Source of the DNA: Anaerolineales bacterium
GTDB lineage: Bacteria > Chloroflexota > Anaerolineae > Anaerolineales > Villigracilaceae
DNA: 64,000 nucleotides
NCBI GenBank assembly: GCA_036846365.1
Contig: DAIUCC010000008.1
Coordinates: 12,922 to 76,921 of the forward strand
Direction of reading: 5' to 3'
Part shown: one piece after another, positions 3,255 to 53,590 of the stretch
How positions within the stretch are numbered: the first letter of the stretch is position 1
Layout: every line of letters starts with the position of its first letter
Notes under the pieces: generated by a model
Databases searched by the model: none
What the model was told of the DNA's origin: nothing
The model's input: the letters and a program-made list of their open reading frames with translations, nothing else
Made by a program: the position numbers and the translations under genes

Positions 3255-3496
3255 CCTGTTATTGTTACATCGTCGAGTGCTCCGACGGGACCTTCTACAC
3301 CGGCTGGACCACCGACCCCGAGCGGCGGGTGAAGACACACAACGCGGGCCGCGGCGCCAAGTACACCCGCACCCGCCGCCCCGTCCATCTGGTCTACGTG
3401 GAGGAGCAACCCGACCGCACGACCGCCATGAAACGAGAGAGGGCCATCAGGGCCCTCCCGCGAGAAAAGAAAATGAAGTTGACGAAAAGACCCTAA
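3251..3496 (+). CDS. GIY-YIG nuclease family protein (UPF0213-like)
   Basis: MTCYCYIVECSDGTFYTGWTTDPERRVKTHNAG... matches GIY-YIG small-protein family; ATGA start/stop overlap with upstream gene. Confidence 0.75.
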   Translation: MTCYCYIVECSDGTFYTGWTTDPERRVKTHNAGRGAKYTRTRRPVHLVYVEEQPDRTTAMKRERAIRALPREKKMKLTKRP

Positions 3497-3520
3497 AGGT
3501 TTTGAAAACCTTTAGGGTCT
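3488..3520. terminator. bidirectional terminator (perfect hairpin) between GIY-YIG gene and convergent PRTase gene
   Basis: agaccctaaaggtttt-gaaaacctttagggtct perfect inverted repeat + cgtttt; hairpin includes the TAA stop. Confidence 0.65.
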
Positions 3521-4076: not shown

Positions 4077-4155
4077 GACTTCCTCCAGAAATATGTATAG
4101 ACGGGGCGAAGTTTATCACAACCTTTTTGAAAAACCAACGCGGTATAATCCTTTC

Positions 4156-4371
4156 GTGCTTCCCGACCTGCAACTCAACGATCACTTGCGCCTGCGAAAG
4201 CCCCATCCCTGCGGCTCCTACGAGTGGACCGTCATCCGCCTCGGCGCGGATATCGGCCTGGAGTGCAAGGGCTGCGGTCGGCGCGTGATGCTCACCCGCC
4301 GCGAGTTGACGCGGCGGCTCAAGACCAACCTCACCCCCCACGAGCCCAAACCCAATGACAACTCCCAATAA
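4156..4371 (+). CDS. DUF951 family small protein
   Basis: KPHPCGSYEWTVIRLGADIGLECKGCGRRVM core of DUF951; likely GTG start at 4156 sited 6 nt after TATAAT (4144-4149, leaderless-type); ORF-track ATG at 4075 would overlap divergent PRTase start and is rejected. Confidence 0.5.
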   Translation: MLPDLQLNDHLRLRKPHPCGSYEWTVIRLGADIGLECKGCGRRVMLTRRELTRRLKTNLTPHEPKPNDNSQ

Positions 4372-9673: not shown

Positions 9674-11071
<1,398 letters not shown>

Positions 11072-11107
11072 GAATACCTGCCTTGCTTTTCGCGCACTAA
11101 TCGAAAC

Positions 11108-12184
11108 TTATTTCCGCTTCTTGCCGTTGCGTTCCTCTTCTACACGGGCGAAGATCATGCGGCCCGCGGCGGTCTGAAGGACCTTGGTGACCGAAACGTC
11201 CATGTACTCGCCGATGTATTCCTTGCCGTTCTCCACGACAACCATTGTGCCATCGTCCATGTAGCCGACGCCCTGCCCCATTTCCTTGCCTTCCTGGATG
11301 ATATTGATGCGCAACAACTCACCCGGCAACACCACCGACTTGACCGCATTGGCCAGTTCGTTGATGTTGAGCACGGTCACACCCTGCAACTCAGCGATGC
11401 GATTAAGGTTGTAGTCATTGGTCAGCACGGGACTCTTGAGCTGCTTGCCGAGGACGATCAGTTTGTCGTCCACTTCGCGGACGCCCTCCACGTCGATGTC
11501 GCTGATACGGACGAGGATATTGGGCAGCTTTTGCAACTCGGCCAGCACTTCCATGCCGCGGCGTCCGCGCTGACGGCGCAGGCCATCGGGCGAGTCGGCG
11601 ATGTATTGCAGTTCGTTCAAGACGAAACGCGGGATGAGCAGCGTACCGGGCAGGAAGCCGGTCTTGGCGATGTCGGACACGCGCCCGTCGATGATGACGC
11701 TGGTATCGAGCAGGATGTTACGGTTGAGGTTGGTCCACGAGGAGGACGAACCGCTTTCGTTGCGTCCACTCAGGGCGCTGAGCAGGCCCATGATGTCGCC
11801 CTGGCGCATGACGAACAACGAGACGCCCAGGTAGGCGAAGATCAACACCCCGATGAAGGGCAGGATGCTCCCAAACGGGCTGGGCAGCATGGAAAGCGGA
11901 AAAGCCAGCAGGGCGGCCGTCAGCAGGCCCATCACCAGCCCGGTCAGGCCGGCAAAAAGCGTCTCGGCGGCCAGCCGTCCCAGCAGGGACCGCAGGGCGC
12001 GCGCGGGACGCGTGGTCAGATAAGGGGCGAAAAGTAACCCGGTCAGGGCCCCCAGCATGGAAAATCCCAGAGTGTAGCCAGTAACATCGGCTGCGGTGGC
12101 GTTCGAAAAATTGTATCCCCAATAACCGGCTGCGCTGCCAAAAACAATCATGAAAACGATGCGCAAAATGAATTCTACGCTCAT
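11108..12184 (-). CDS. PIN/TRAM-domain membrane protein (YacL-like)
   Basis: Four N-terminal TM helices, PIN domain (ILLDTSVIIDGRV...), C-terminal TRAM-like domain; sits immediately upstream of cysS as yacL does in Firmicutes. Confidence 0.8.
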   Translation of the reverse strand: MSVEFILRIVFMIVFGSAAGYWGYNFSNATAADVTGYTLGFSMLGALTGLLFAPYLTTRPARALRSLLGRLAAETLFAGLTGLVMGLLTAALLAFPLSMLPSPFGSILPFIGVLIFAYLGVSLFVMRQGDIMGLLSALSGRNESGSSSSWTNLNRNILLDTSVIIDGRVSDIAKTGFLPGTLLIPRFVLNELQYIADSPDGLRRQRGRRGMEVLAELQKLPNILVRISDIDVEGVREVDDKLIVLGKQLKSPVLTNDYNLNRIAELQGVTVLNINELANAVKSVVLPGELLRINIIQEGKEMGQGVGYMDDGTMVVVENGKEYIGEYMDVSVTKVLQTAAGRMIFARVEEERNGKKRK

Positions 12185-25413: not shown

Positions 25414-26201
25414 CCGAACTGACCTTCGCCCGCCTGCGCGCCTGCTTCCGTGACCTGGGCCTGCACGGACAACCCATCATCGCGCACACTTCGCTAACCG
25501 CGTTCGGTCCCATCCACGGCGGAGCAAGCACGCTATTAGGCGCCCTGTTGGCCAATGCCAGCGCGCTGCTGGTTCCCACCTTCACCTACAAGACGATGGT
25601 CACACCCGGGGTCGGTCTGCCGCACAACGGATTGACCTACGGCAGCGACCTGAGCCATAACCTGATGGCCGAGTTCTTTCACGCAGACATGCCCGCCGAC
25701 CGCATGATGGGCTGGTTCCCCGAAGTCGTGCGGCGGCATCCCGCCGCGCGCCGCAGCCTGCATCCGATCCTCTCGTTTGCGGGCATCCATGCCGACGAGG
25801 CGCTCGACGCGCAGACACTCTTCAACCCGCTGGCACCCATCGGCGTGCTGGCCGAACAGGGCGGATGGGTCGTGCTGCTGGGCGTGGATCAAACCGTCAA
25901 CACCAGCATCCACTTCGCCGAGAAACTGGCCGGCCGCCGACAGTTCACCCGCTGGGCGCTGACCAGGAAACGCATCGTGGAATGCTCAGGCTTCCCCGGC
26001 GATTCGAGCGGCTTCGACTCGCTCGCCGCCGATCTCGAAGCCAACACGCGCAGCGCGGTGATCGGGCCTGCAGTGGTGCGGGCCATTCCGCTTCAACGAC
26101 TCTTCGAGACGGTGCAGAAGCGGCTCCAGCACAATCCACTCGACCTGTTATGCGAGCGGGACGATTGCGAACGCTGCAACGCCGTCCGCGACTCGGTATA
26201 A
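25410..26201 (+). CDS. AAC(3)-family aminoglycoside N3-acetyltransferase-like protein
   Basis: N-terminal IIAHTSLTAFGPIHGGASTLLGAL....LLVPTFTY mirrors AAC(3) (LLVHSSLSSLG.V.GGA...A.......GTLVMPT); 4-nt overlap with crotonase gene. Confidence 0.65.
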   Translation: MTELTFARLRACFRDLGLHGQPIIAHTSLTAFGPIHGGASTLLGALLANASALLVPTFTYKTMVTPGVGLPHNGLTYGSDLSHNLMAEFFHADMPADRMMGWFPEVVRRHPAARRSLHPILSFAGIHADEALDAQTLFNPLAPIGVLAEQGGWVVLLGVDQTVNTSIHFAEKLAGRRQFTRWALTRKRIVECSGFPGDSSGFDSLAADLEANTRSAVIGPAVVRAIPLQRLFETVQKRLQHNPLDLLCERDDCERCNAVRDSV

Positions 26202-26239
26202 AAAAGAGACGGTCACCTTGAAGGTGACCGTCTCTTTTT
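26201..26239. terminator. strong bidirectional terminator
   Basis: aaaaagagacggtcacc-ttgaa-ggtgaccgtctcttttt. Confidence 0.7.
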
Positions 26240-33005: not shown

Positions 33006-33071
33006 ACGCTCTCAAGAGACCTCCGAGTTTCGGAGGTCTCTTCTTTTCCCTGCTTATGCTATACTGCGGAC

Positions 33072-36553: not shown

Positions 36554-37147
36554 CTACAGTCGCTTTCGGCGATGCCGCAGAAACAAGATCAATCCTGGAA
36601 CGGCGAGAACAACCAGACTCAACCATAAAAAATCATATGTTCCATCGGGACCTCTTGGTTCTTGTCCAGTGAAACCTTTGACGCTGGCTACGACATCATC
36701 TTGAACATCGAACCAGGTTCGGATTTGCAAGGGTCCTGCCGAGAATGGGTCTCCATTGACAAAGAATATGGCGCGGGAACCTTCGCTAAAGGCAAAATTG
36801 GGTGCACAGACCCAAAAATATCCTGAAATCTTAACTATCTTGGGACCGCGTCCCTTCAAGTATCGCTCAACTTGCACAGTGAGGATGCTGTTCCCGTCAG
36901 AATCAGGAACCCAAGTCTTCACGGTTCCTTCAAGCACGATTTGCGCGTCCTGAATGACACCAGCAACTTGCGTTCCAACTGGGATTGGAGTGGGCGGCAC
37001 ATAACCGGGCGGGACCAGGGTCGGCTCACAAGCCAGTGCTGACCGAGGTGCGGATCCAAAGACAAGCATGAGCGCCAGAAGGATGGTACCCAAAAAACAA
37101 TACGCGATGAGGTAAGTCTTGGATCTCATAATGGATTTGGCATTCAC
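36554..37147 (-). CDS. hypothetical secreted protein with C-terminal TM anchor (island gene)
   Basis: Signal peptide, C-terminal hydrophobic stretch + RHRRKRL. Confidence 0.45.
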   Translation of the reverse strand: MNAKSIMRSKTYLIAYCFLGTILLALMLVFGSAPRSALACEPTLVPPGYVPPTPIPVGTQVAGVIQDAQIVLEGTVKTWVPDSDGNSILTVQVERYLKGRGPKIVKISGYFWVCAPNFAFSEGSRAIFFVNGDPFSAGPLQIRTWFDVQDDVVASVKGFTGQEPRGPDGTYDFLWLSLVVLAVPGLILFLRHRRKRL

Positions 37148-37209
37148 TCCGTAAGCGCAGCAAGGATGGGACGTACGTTTTGTCGGGCAACGACATATGA
37201 GTGTGCTGG

Positions 37210-37770
37210 TTATTTGCGTTGCAGCTCGTAATTAAGAACAACAATCCCGCAGTCAAAAGATGTGGATTTCACCAATACCAGATTTTGTCTGCTGTCCAGT
37301 TCTTTGAAAATTGACATTCCATTACCAATCGCAACTGGATTGATAAACAGATGAAACTCATCGATCAATCCGTGCTTGATGAGAACCGATACAAATGCCA
37401 CGCCACCATAAGCAATGATGTCTTTACCGTCTTGTTTTTTTAGTCTTGCGATTTCTTCAACCAGGTCGCCTTTTGCCAAAACAGTATGATCCCATTCTGA
37501 CTTCTCAAGCGTTTTGGTAAAAATAATTTTTTTCGTGCTATTGAATTTATCAGCGCCTTCTTGTTCTGGATGAGAAGCCCAATATGGGATAAAACCTTGA
37601 GCAAGTTTCCGCCCAAGAAGGATGCAGTCAACTGGCTCCATTATTTCTCCCACATGTTTTTTAAGATTATCGTCCCAATCTTGCGCCGTCCAATCCATTT
37701 CCCCGTTCTTTCCTGCAATGTAACCATCAACAGTCATCTGGACTTGGAGTTTTAGTTTTCTCATTATCAT
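37210..37770 (-). CDS. dihydrofolate reductase-like (RibD C-terminal domain) family protein, cassette-like
   Basis: LQVQMTVDGYIAG...ILLGRKL...AYGGVAFVSVLI pattern of RibD_C/DHFR-like family; AT-rich. Confidence 0.7.
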   Translation of the reverse strand: MIMRKLKLQVQMTVDGYIAGKNGEMDWTAQDWDDNLKKHVGEIMEPVDCILLGRKLAQGFIPYWASHPEQEGADKFNSTKKIIFTKTLEKSEWDHTVLAKGDLVEEIARLKKQDGKDIIAYGGVAFVSVLIKHGLIDEFHLFINPVAIGNGMSIFKELDSRQNLVLVKSTSFDCGIVVLNYELQRK

Positions 37771-37799: not shown

Positions 37800-37914
37800 A
37801 GTTATTTTTGCGAAGCCTTTTAATCTCAAAAAGGCCGAGGTTTAAAAACACTGTATATAATGGCGCCGATTGGACGTCGTCCATGACAAGCGTCCAGTGC
37901 ACGCTGTGTTGAGC
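37800..37914 (-). repeat. degenerate attC-like repeat (only R''/L'' half conserved)
   Basis: plus strand ...gtgcacgctgtgttgagc (GTTGAGC = GTTRRRY) matches conserved end of the other copies; other half diverged. Confidence 0.4.
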
Positions 37915-38763: not shown

Positions 38764-38893
38764 GCCTAACGGTTTGCGTTACTTGCGGGCGGGCAGGACG
38801 TGAACAGCACTCAAAAACGGAATCCTGCCGAGGCATTGAAAACTGCCTGAAATCGCACAGACTCCCACTTGTCGGCTGCACGCTGTGTTGGGC
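38764..38893 (-). repeat. attC-like recombination site (130 bp)
   Basis: plus strand GCCTAAC...GTTGGGC (RYYYAAC ... GTTRRRY), conserved GGTTTGCGTTAC and TGCTGCACGCTGTGTT boxes, internal palindromes; 5 nt after stop of epimerase gene. Confidence 0.7.
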
Positions 38894-39916: not shown

Positions 39917-40047
39917 GCCTAATGGTTTGCGTTACCTGCGCTGGGGCCGTGGACGGCGAAGCCGTCCAGCCAGAAAAATGCTGAGGCGTGGAAAAATGCT
40001 TGAAAACGGCGCAGAATCCCCGCCGTCTGCTGCACGCTGTGTTGGGC
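39917..40047 (-). repeat. attC-like recombination site (131 bp)
   Basis: GCCTAAT...GTTGGGC; internal hairpin ggacggcgaagccgtcc; near-identical left half to copy at 41908. Confidence 0.7.
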
Positions 40048-41028: not shown

Positions 41029-41158
41029 GCCTAACGGCTTGCGTTACTTGCAAGTGGGCGGGACGCGGCGAAGGCTCGAAAACAGAAACCTGCTGAGGCT
41101 TTGAAAACCACCAAAAAATGCGGCGACTCCTACTTGTCGGCTGCACACTGTGTTGGGC
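41029..41158 (-). repeat. attC-like recombination site (130 bp)
   Basis: GCCTAAC...GTTGGGC with same conserved boxes. Confidence 0.7.
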
Positions 41159-41907: not shown

Positions 41908-42014
41908 GCCCAACGGTTTGCGTTACCTGCGCTGGGGCTGGGACGGCGAAGCCGTCCAACCAGAAAAAGGCTCAGGCGTAGAATCCAACCCGTCAAGTGC
42001 ACGCTTTGTTGGGC
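41908..42014 (-). repeat. attC-like recombination site (107 bp, shorter variant)
   Basis: GCCCAAC...GTTGGGC; shares left half with copy at 39917. Confidence 0.65.
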
Positions 42015-42103: not shown

Positions 42104-42640
42104 TCACAATTTTTCTTTCAAAACGAACTTTCTGTAACTTAGTAATTTTTGAATATCGTCAGGATGAGGAAGAATTTTCCACTTTTCAGTAAGGGCATAT
42201 GCTTGCGGCTCTGCTGTTTCTTCAACAAATTTCTTCTCCTTATCAATTCCTAACTCAAACCCAATGCGGGGGTGGTTGTAATAGACATGAGAAAATTCGT
42301 GAGCCAAAATATGTATTTTTGTTTTATGTTCAATGAAATTAGAAAAAGGATTGAAAATTACAAAACAACGTAAGTTAATTTTATTAAGTAAGGCACATGC
42401 AGGTGTATCGAATTGCCATAAGTCATTAACTTGTTTACACAGAATAAAATCAAGATTTTCGAGAATTTTATCTCGGCTATCTTTGGGAATACTATCCCAG
42501 GTTTCTACAAATAAATCTTCGTAAACCCTTTTTCGTTCGGCTGAATCATCATTGGAAAAATACAGTAAATTATTCATGACAGGTAAGTACAATTTTCTGA
42601 TCTCCATAATAACCATGCCTACAGCCCTTATTGAATGCAT
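42104..42640 (-). CDS. HExxH-motif protein, putative ImmA/IrrE-like metallopeptidase (cassette 1), very AT-rich
   Basis: HEFSHVYYNH; start codon overlaps a core-site-like GTTAGAT (minus strand GTTAG|ATG). Confidence 0.55.
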   Translation of the reverse strand: MHSIRAVGMVIMEIRKLYLPVMNNLLYFSNDDSAERKRVYEDLFVETWDSIPKDSRDKILENLDFILCKQVNDLWQFDTPACALLNKINLRCFVIFNPFSNFIEHKTKIHILAHEFSHVYYNHPRIGFELGIDKEKKFVEETAEPQAYALTEKWKILPHPDDIQKLLSYRKFVLKEKL

Positions 42641-42649
42641 CTAACTATG

Positions 42650-42679
42650 GTGTTATACAGCAATTCTGCTGTATAACAC
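42650..42679. promoter_or_regulatory. perfect 12-bp inverted repeat with 6-nt spacer, candidate operator
   Basis: GTGTTATACAGC-aattct-GCTGTATAACAC, between candidate promoter and first cassette ATG. Confidence 0.4.
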
Positions 42680-42696
42680 CCTTTATCTTTCAAAAA

Positions 42697-42704
42697 TTAT
42701 ACAT
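42697..42704 (-). promoter_or_regulatory. extended -10 promoter element reading into cassette array
   Basis: minus strand TGTATAAT. Confidence 0.35.
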
Positions 42705-42724
42705 CCGATTCCCAGGCGAATTTC

Positions 42725-43321
42725 TCACGGCCGATATGGCTCCTCGCGCACGAGATGACCATAGATGATCTTGAGGAACAGGGCGGGGATCAGCCACTCG
42801 AATCCCCAGACGGGCGGCAGCACATACAGATTCAGCAGGATGGCAATCAGGATGATGCCCAAGGCGGTGGGACGCTGCAAATAGAGCGGCATTTGTAGCA
42901 ACATCCACGCGGAGAACAGCAGGGCCAGGTACCAGAACAGGCCATAGGTCCAGTTGCCGCCGAAGAGCAGGGCCGCCAGCAGCGGGTGGACGTGAAAAGC
43001 CGTGAAGGCTAGATGATTCTTCGCCAGCCGCGTTAGGCCTGTCTCTTCGGGCTGGAGCGGGGCATGGTAGAAACGTTTGCAACTGTTGAGCGCGTTCGCC
43101 GCCACGCCGCCAAACACATCCAACGCCATCAGCCCCGCCACAAGATACTGCCAGATCGTCCACGGGATGGACTTGGTCCACACTACCCAGGCCAGGATGC
43201 CCGTGGCGAACAGGCCCACGGTCCACACCAGGGTGCGCTCGGCGGTCGTCGCGCCCGTGCCGAAGAATTCGTCGGGCTTGCCTGAGTAGTTCCAATCGAT
43301 CACAACGCGGTCGGGTTTCAT
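42725..43321 (-). CDS. polytopic membrane protein, hypothetical (GC-rich flank)
   Basis: 198 aa, ~5 TM segments. Confidence 0.55.
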   Translation of the reverse strand: MKPDRVVIDWNYSGKPDEFFGTGATTAERTLVWTVGLFATGILAWVVWTKSIPWTIWQYLVAGLMALDVFGGVAANALNSCKRFYHAPLQPEETGLTRLAKNHLAFTAFHVHPLLAALLFGGNWTYGLFWYLALLFSAWMLLQMPLYLQRPTALGIILIAILLNLYVLPPVWGFEWLIPALFLKIIYGHLVREEPYRP

Positions 43322-46180: not shown

Positions 46181-46214
46181 AAAGCGGGGTGGACCTCGGA
46201 GGTCCACCCCGCTT
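46181..46214. repeat. palindromic element / terminator (family GGTGGACCT-n5-AGGTCCACC)
   Basis: aaagcggggtggacctcggaggtccaccccgctt between convergent ppc and yeiH. Confidence 0.5.
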
Positions 46215-53546: not shown

Positions 53547-53590
53547 AAAAAAGAGCCTCATCAAATGATGAGGCTCTTTTCATTTCCCTT
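53547..53590. terminator. bidirectional terminator
   Basis: aaaaaagagcctcatc-aaat-gatgaggctctttt + cattt. Confidence 0.65.

Follow-up and report, generated by a model that had tools for sequence, protein, structure and literature searches.

How do gene cassettes come to lie outside any attI, and by what promoter are they read there? attC clusters that have no integron integrase (CALINs) are common, and their origin and the expression of their promoterless genes are mostly inferred. The question is raised here by an 86-bp interval (42639-42724) at the head of a cassette array in DNA of an Anaerolineales bacterium (Chloroflexota), of which a stretch of 64,000 nt, referred to as the window, was scanned. 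Array and junction are read on the minus strand, and the comparisons involve related loci from other assemblies or contigs, designated by L-numbers (L001, L093, L102 and so on); lineages of Anaerolineales metagenome-assembled genomes are indicated by the flanking 198-aa membrane protein. The reading that we favour, with moderate confidence, takes the interval as the place where host DNA meets the head of a CALIN and where a resident promoter would drive cassettes inserted outside any attI. From 42730 on the minus strand the junction reads ccgTGA gaaattcgcctgggaatcgga TGTATAAT ttttgaaagataaag GGTGTTATACAGCA gaat TGCTGTATAACACC ata GTTAGAT Gcattcaataagggctgtaggc ATG gtt..., and it is composed of the following features.

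42725-43321, minus strand: host gene for a 198-aa membrane protein without family match; stop codon TGA at 42727-42725.
42703-42696, minus strand: TGTATAAT, with TATAAT at 42701-42696; predicted conserved host -10 box.
42681-42695, minus strand: spacer, a leader of the TTTTTGAAAGATAAAG type; TTGAAAgAT against TTGAAAtAT of the empty sites after a 3-nt indel.
42649-42680, no strand assigned: perfect inverted repeat, GGTGTTATACAGCA gaat TGCTGTATAACACC, with arms at 42680-42667 and 42662-42649.
42639-42645, minus strand: GTTAGAT, an R'-type core (GTTRRRY) and putative 5' edge of cassette 1; the crossover would fall at G42645|T42644.
42104-42616, minus strand: open reading frame (ORF) of cassette 1, 170 aa, with a conserved HExxH and no family match; true ATG at 42616-42614.

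The earlier note on this DNA had placed the interval at the edge of an attC array, and the array is real. The region from 42.7 to 37.2 kb (minus strand) is a genuine attC cassette array in which repeats of 107-131 nt, starting with GCCCAAC and ending with GTTRGGC, separate six co-oriented minus-strand ORFs. A covariance model trained on 6 sites was used to scan 35.5-44.5 kb with filters off; it recovered four full attC at 97-133 bits and a fifth only as fragments, and no further attC was found in that region. All of the sites lie on the minus strand, in agreement with the definition of such arrays by two or more attC clustered on one strand at distances below 4 kb.

41908-42014, minus strand: attC 1, GCCCAAC...GTTGGGC, 96.8 bits.
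41029-41158, minus strand: attC 2, 126.7 bits.
39917-40047, minus strand: attC 3, R' mutated to ATTAGGC, 132.9 bits.
38764-38893, minus strand: attC 4, 128.5 bits.
37801-37914, minus strand: truncated fifth attC, with R''-L'' and the centre kept and L'-R' lost, 9.2 and 11.8 bits.

In the RNAalifold consensus of the attC of the window and two copies of the same family from the unrelated metagenomic contig L093, R'' and R' pair as GCC.AAC/GTT.GGC, L'' and L' form the stem GCGT/ACGC, and the canonical attC architecture is completed by a centre that varies and a spacer that is asymmetric and unpaired. Base composition steps exactly at the junction, with 39-47% GC across ~37.0-42.7 kb and ~60% GC in the surroundings. 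The ORF products are the 170-aa HExxH protein without family, a UppS-type prenyltransferase, a 310-aa protein of no named function, an NAD-dependent epimerase-like protein, a short-chain dehydrogenase and a RibD_C-type reductase, and a promoter scan of the array strand gave no convincing internal promoter-like sites upstream of cassettes 1-5. In the R' box of attC 3 (39917-39923, minus strand) ATTAGGC replaces GTTAGGC, which mutates the G of the crossover triplet; recombination at this site should be blocked and cassettes 3 and 4 fused. The attC family of the window is widespread in Anaerolineae: in the more distant Anaerolinea relative L022 a member scoring 59.7 bits (1474-1595) precedes the membrane-gene homolog by 2 kb, and directly after that homolog comes a weak attC-like start (4142-4202).

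No tyrosine recombinase was detected in the 64 kb by tblastn with IntI1 and XerC probes (best E = 0.15); the IntI1 probe itself was recognized as an integron integrase, at 799 bits and over its full length (NF011946). With no integron integrase within 64 kb the array is therefore a CALIN by the published definition (PMC4889954). The same study treats the origins of CALINs, which can arise via loss of intI, and has integrons in Chloroflexi also on record (PMC4889954).

The DNA in front of the array is that of the host. Synteny of the membrane gene with the gene of phosphoenolpyruvate (PEP) carboxylase is intact in all close relatives, up to the stop codon of the membrane gene. In L001 and L003 (86-94% amino acid identity) homology covers PEP carboxylase, continues over the membrane gene as far as window 42724, and resumes at window 37131 after just 144 nt; judged from this alignment, both loci are natural empty sites that lack the entire 5.6-kb island. 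The gene that follows in them is also found at the far side of the island.

36554-37129, minus strand: host gene of 191 aa; in L001 and L003 its homolog follows the membrane gene at a distance of 144 nt, with the TATAAT box right in front of it.

When eight intergenic regions were aligned (window, L102, L001, L003, L004, L005, L009 and L012, representing four lineages with differing downstream genes), TATAAT was the sole invariant block past the end of the membrane gene. In the window TGTATAAT begins 21 nt past the stop codon of that gene. The empty sites read TGA-(24 nt)-gaTGTATAAT, with gaTGTATAAT as in the window, and TATAAT stands at the same place in relatives that carry different insertions, as a good TTGATT-17-TATAAT in L004 and L005 and as a true extended TGcTATAAT in L009 and L012. 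Because it is invariant across relatives, including the island-free L001 and L003, the box is read as a host -10 element that is older than the island and now faces the array. By its position it can be considered well placed to transcribe the array as a Pc would, though it is not an integron component. The earlier note had described TGTATAAT as an extended -10 and as a plausible Pc-like outward promoter. The element is indeed present and points into the array, one base away from where it had been placed, but neither description can be retained: its TG abuts TATAAT at -14/-13, whereas the canonical extended -10 (TGnTATAAT) has it at -15/-14, and a Pc is part of the integron platform, whereas this TATAAT is found where there is no island.

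Host similarity does not end at the box. With a fixed register and the 3-nt indel it can be followed for ~15-20 nt past TATAAT, to ~42681 (19 of 40 positions identical at offset -3, ~11 at other offsets), and the spacer 42681-42695 is probably still host-derived. A continuation of host homology through the palindrome was rejected, as the post-TATAAT leader did no better than shuffles when it was freely and locally aligned with the empty sites; a likeness between GGTGTCGGGATTAGAGCATGG of L004 and L005 and GGTGT...GTTAGATGCAT of the window was dropped, being without support in the multiple alignment. It had been proposed that conservation of the whole junction in genomes lacking the island would speak against its belonging to the array. 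The outcome is divided: ~42724-42681 is conserved host sequence, whereas 42680-42639, with palindrome and GTTAGAT, is missing from both empty sites (L001 and L003).

GTTAGAT is present at the array-proximal boundary as had been reported, 3 nt past the palindrome and 79 nt from the host stop codon. It had also been said to overlap the first ATG of cassette 1, and this had to be abandoned. The ATG that it overlaps is 42640-42638, whereas all 14 homologs (166-197 aa) align from ATG 42616, on which the gene callers agree; the 170-aa product is recorded on nine contigs and the 178-aa version from ATG 42640 is not on record. The longer start was rejected, its eight extra residues having no counterpart in the 14 homologs. 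Counted from the true ATG, GTTAGAT stands 29-23 nt upstream, and that it overlaps the other one is, on this alignment, a coincidence.

As a cassette boundary, G|TT is plausible because homologs of ORF1, the product of cassette 1, have a similar heptamer at that place elsewhere, with unrelated DNA upstream. Their leaders have TTAG..G.AT..A in common after the heptamer, and the heptamers, (G/A)TTRRRY, stand 29-37 nt before the ATG. In L103 (72% identity to ORF1) GTTGGGC precedes the ATG by 36 nt and the DNA upstream is unrelated; in L098 (56% identity) attC-like direct repeats flank the gene, and the upstream repeat ends in ...ATTAG|TCGTATGAAG, with ATTAGTC as the heptamer; in L093 (81% identity) the gene again heads an array, whose attC are of the family found in the window, but it stands behind other host genes. 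The cassette-start homology of L098 and L093 with the window is suggestive. That of the L093 leader is convincing only from ~25 nt upstream of the ATG, and a TATAATTTTT likeness further up was dropped since MAFFT did not align it. A metagenome scan for further contexts, made with the ORF1 family alignment, gave 3 loci only. Taken together, G42645|T42644 is the probable cassette edge, a judgement that leans somewhat beyond even. The crossover point of the earlier note is in this sense kept as a boundary, but not as the attI platform with which it had been compared: an attI lies between intI and the first cassette, and upstream of this core lie, in host synteny, the membrane-protein gene and PEP carboxylase. 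The triplet itself agrees with what is required of attG, the genomic sites used by IntI, as ...CATAG|TTAGAT offers 5'-GWT-3' at the cleavage point and TTRRRY after what would be a host G.

These elements can be arranged as follows. The cassettes would have entered, or been founded, by IntI-type recombination at G|TT outside attI, by the attG or secondary-site route, and the array would be transcribed from the resident host promoter, which would do the job of Pc without membership of an integron. The founder ORF1 cassette would stay first and later cassettes would be added at its attC; such a founder-first order would fit the position of ORF1 at the head of arrays in two unrelated contexts. The hairpin, at about +10 to +41 of the leader, would act as a stem-loop or operator on the array strand or, alternatively, as an intrinsic terminator for antisense (plus-strand) transcripts leaving the array.

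The ORF1 family has some features of its own. The 170-aa protein contains an invariant HILAHExxHxxYxHP and matches no Pfam or NCBIfam entry. Its members were found at window 42104-42616, L093 2518-3030, L103 339-845, L098 6001-6528 and L096 6001-6513, heading attC arrays in two unrelated host contexts, as a lone unit in a third and internally in a fourth. In L096 and L097 the homolog adjoins an operon of the cyclic-oligonucleotide-based antiphage signalling system (CBASS; SMODS, SAVED, Cap2-like and JAB) on a plasmid- or phage-like contig, and ORF1 may, by this association, be a mobile defence-associated or anti-defence gene.

The palindrome is the element of the junction that is least easily accommodated. 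The earlier note had given it as a perfect repeat with 12-nt arms and a 6-nt loop; the perfect repeat exists, with 14-nt arms and a 4-nt loop. It starts 15 nt after the TATAAT box, its stem is AT-rich (6 of the 14 pairs are GC), and when folded as RNA it reaches -22.6 kcal/mol (z = -5.0), when folded as DNA -14.7 kcal/mol (z = -6.3), with none of 200 shuffles as good. It is far beyond chance. That it is unlike the other attC copies was confirmed by the covariance model, which found no match in 42600-42724 at E<=10 with filters off, and its arms stand in the order GTT...AAC, the reverse of attC; a degenerate attC or attI was rejected on the absent match together with the arm order. Rfam gave no match in the leader at E<=1, and copies of the palindrome were found neither beyond chance in the 64-kb window nor in 80 related loci, viral contigs or plasmids. 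A similarity of ~48% (MAFFT) between the right arm plus GTTAGAT and the 3' end of the L098 repeat is kept as a lead only.

The absence of a T-run, also stated in the earlier note, holds for the array strand, which is that of both neighbouring genes, but on the plus strand the hairpin is followed by the T-rich tail CTTTATCTTT and is terminator-like. Elsewhere in the host genome, unusually long perfect palindromes with stems of 13-18 bp and A-run and T-run flanks occur at gene ends (26201-26239, 53549-53580, 46182-46214, 3488-3520 and 33014-33042), where they are apparently bidirectional intrinsic terminators. With these the hairpin of the junction shares a long perfect stem (here of 14 bp), a short loop and a T-rich tail (here on the plus strand). 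It differs from them in being AT-rich and placed after a promoter box, whereas they are GC-rich and placed at gene ends, and from intrinsic terminators in general in having no plus-strand gene to terminate. A role at the level of RNA or transcription is, from these features, most likely, in preference to one in recombination, and the hairpin is unlikely to be a recombination site.

At the other end of the island the picture is less regular.

37174-37190, minus strand: distal island end, an attC-left-half-like remnant, GCCCGACAAAACGTACG; host homology resumes here.

Upstream of ATG 37129, window and L001 agree at 26 of 55 positions in fixed register, which none of 5000 shuffles equalled, and the similarity is gone above ~37189. 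The empty sites carry a counterpart of the remnant, GTCTGACACAGCGTACA (L001 6292-6308; L003 928-944); both GCCCGACAAAACGTACG and GTCTGACACAGCGTACA resemble the R''-L'' half of the attC consensus, the empty-site copy scoring only 8 bits by the attC model. The RibD_C gene that follows the fifth attC (37210-37770) is without an attC of its own and has its own promoter-like site, TTCGCA-18-AATAAT (37814-37785). From its layout this last unit is not a normal cassette.

The recent history of the junction was followed by comparing strains. A 171-nt junction segment is identical in 12 independent assemblies of the population. Against the diverged strain L102 (compared over 43321-41850), the membrane gene shows 27 differences (4.5%), mostly with third-codon-position spacing, 42712-42521 shows none, and 42520-41850 shows 7 (0.8%). 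Divergence falls sharply at 42712, from 4.5% in the host gene to 0.8% beyond that point, and the junction from just upstream of TATAAT therefore shares the younger history of the island. The pattern indicates a recent exchange or sweep of the island relative to the backbone.

Several of the observations weigh against an IntI-mediated landing behind a working host promoter. At the promoter, no -35 accompanies the -10 box, whose TG is one base misplaced: no hexamer with at least four of six matches to TTGACA occurs 16-18 nt upstream of the TATAAT of the window, and a sigma-70 scan does not list the site. At the cassette edge, a GTTRRRY on the correct strand of the ~80-nt leader has a chance probability of roughly 7%, and the aligned heptamer of L093, which is the nearest of the independent contexts, is a degenerate GGTGGAG, with ATTAGTCGG 20 nt further up. 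The left breakpoint lies between 42681 and 42645, where the palindrome sits, and the latter is therefore either lineage-specific host DNA or arrived with the island. An attG target would be uninterrupted host DNA 5' of the G; host homology reaches ~42681, and the palindrome (42680-42649) is without an empty-site counterpart. At the distal end, where an attG event would leave a complete attC whose R' is completed by a host WT, none such was seen; the truncated fifth attC, the attC-less last gene and the half-site in the empty sites argue against a clean attC x attG product, and the locus may have held older array or attC DNA earlier. An integrase may also exist elsewhere in the genome, beyond the window, and the island may have passed from strain to strain through homologous recombination in its flanks, which would fit the strain comparison.

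The alternative that survives best is an arrival without any integron activity, through homologous replacement or illegitimate insertion, with GTTAGAT there by chance and the palindrome serving as terminator or insulator of the upstream gene or of the incoming DNA. The intergenic spot does receive other DNA. L004 has another low-GC island (10600-11556), L002 again different DNA (10585-10810), and L005 a 216-aa gene between 70-nt duplicates of the 3' end of the membrane gene (10513-10582 and 11403-11472), a target duplication that suggests another integrative element directed to the end of this gene. Since these insertions at the same spot are unrelated, the spot is an insertion hotspot. Island and junction are moreover ~5-fold less diverged between strains than the host gene, GTTRRRY shows no significant enrichment, with 109 matches in the window where 91 +/- 10 would be expected, long perfect hairpins are apparently in use as terminators in this genome, and on the plus strand the palindrome scores as terminator-like. 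However, the hairpin lies downstream of the conserved -10 and not between stop codon and promoter, no T-run follows it on the strand to which the upstream gene belongs, and its AT-rich stem is unlike those of the other terminators. Moreover, the recurrence of a GTTRRRY-type heptamer at the 5' edge of ORF1 homologs elsewhere is against a chance origin of GTTAGAT, and homologous recombination between strains is compatible with an earlier founding mediated by IntI. We regard this alternative as unlikely, though it is the one to be taken most seriously.

Less probable still, and in our opinion rather doubtful, is that the palindrome, centred ~25 nt past the expected start, is the operator of a dimeric transcription factor by which transcription from TATAAT into the array would be repressed or activated. 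A perfect dyad with 14-bp half-sites spaced by 4 bp, immediately downstream of a conserved -10, would suit such a function, and the palindrome is strictly conserved in 13 assemblies, the diverged strain included. This conservation is, however, uninformative, because the whole block is nearly identical among the strains. Furthermore, no other half-site copy beyond chance was found in the 64 kb, the island neither contains nor adjoins a regulator gene (the nearest one, a LysR ~4.6 kb off, is paired with its own divergent target), and the palindrome occurs in none of the contexts of ORF1 homologs and has no match in the viral or plasmid collections.

The interpretation towards which the earlier note inclined, that of a decayed platform of a complete integron in which GTTAGAT would be the core of attI, the palindrome what is left of an attI or operator, and TGTATAAT the Pc, with intI lost, has become very improbable. 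A GTTRRRY does head a co-oriented attC array, TATAAT does point into it, and loss of intI is a documented source of CALINs (PMC4889954). But the tblastn search disclosed no IntI-like coding remnant in the 64 kb, the host stop codon and GTTAGAT are just 79 nt apart in a neighbourhood whose synteny is undisturbed in close relatives, the palindrome has no attC-model score, 42646-42724 showed no attI-type direct repeats, and TATAAT is present in island-free relatives; the empty-site comparison already largely refutes this interpretation. Slightly fainter still is the prospect that the hairpin is a new kind of structured array-proximal site, a folded-DNA docking or recombination element or a regulatory switch, which would explain its travelling with the island and its absence from the empty sites and, if true, would let integrase-less Chloroflexota arrays acquire or express cassettes without attI.

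We return to the host/CALIN junction with a resident promoter, to be compared with the systems already described. With the attI and Pc platform of class 1-type integrons it shares a GTTRRRY core at the head of the array, a motif that here is not above chance, and an outward-facing -10 upstream of cassette 1. It differs from that platform in having no adjacent intI, a promoter that is host DNA older than the array, no IntI-binding direct repeats that could be seen, and a host stop codon close to the core. With the CALINs defined in 2016 (PMC4889954) it agrees in that the array has at least two canonical attC at a spacing of ~0.9-1.2 kb, an ORF of the same orientation for each attC, neither intI nor an intI pseudogene nearby, cassette functions that are mostly uncharacterised or metabolic, and the typical small size, with 5 sites. 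What distinguishes this one is that empty-site relatives allow a comparison at both of its ends, something seldom done, that its proximal end abuts a conserved host promoter, and that its distal end is degenerate, consisting of a truncated attC and an attC-like half-site that the empty sites share.

The route through attG also resembles the locus in several of its parts. IntI can insert cassettes at genomic sites that need little beyond 5'-GWT-3', cassettes landing near a resident promoter get expressed, and small CALINs may arise in this way (bioRxiv 10.1101/2022.09.11.507474); earlier work on secondary-site insertion is cited in PMC4889954. The G|TT of the junction fits 5'-GWT-3', the side upstream of it has neither attI nor attC character, the orientation of the cassettes lets a resident promoter ~50 nt upstream read in, and a putative founder cassette comes first, at whose attC later ones could be added. 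In contrast with the described cases, the likeness here is one of sequence alone, the host-side palindrome is not in the empty-site relatives, the right-hand junction is not a clean product of attC and host DNA, and the organism is a Chloroflexota bacterium. The locus is a well-documented natural case of a known kind, ordinary but for the hairpin, and has nothing categorically new in it. Its value lies in the confrontation of an array-bearing genome with natural empty sites, by which the promoter at the array head is recognized as a pre-existing host element and not as part of an integron; the locus fits the route of landing at a genomic G|TT with expression from a resident promoter, and extends it to an uncultured lineage of Anaerolineales.

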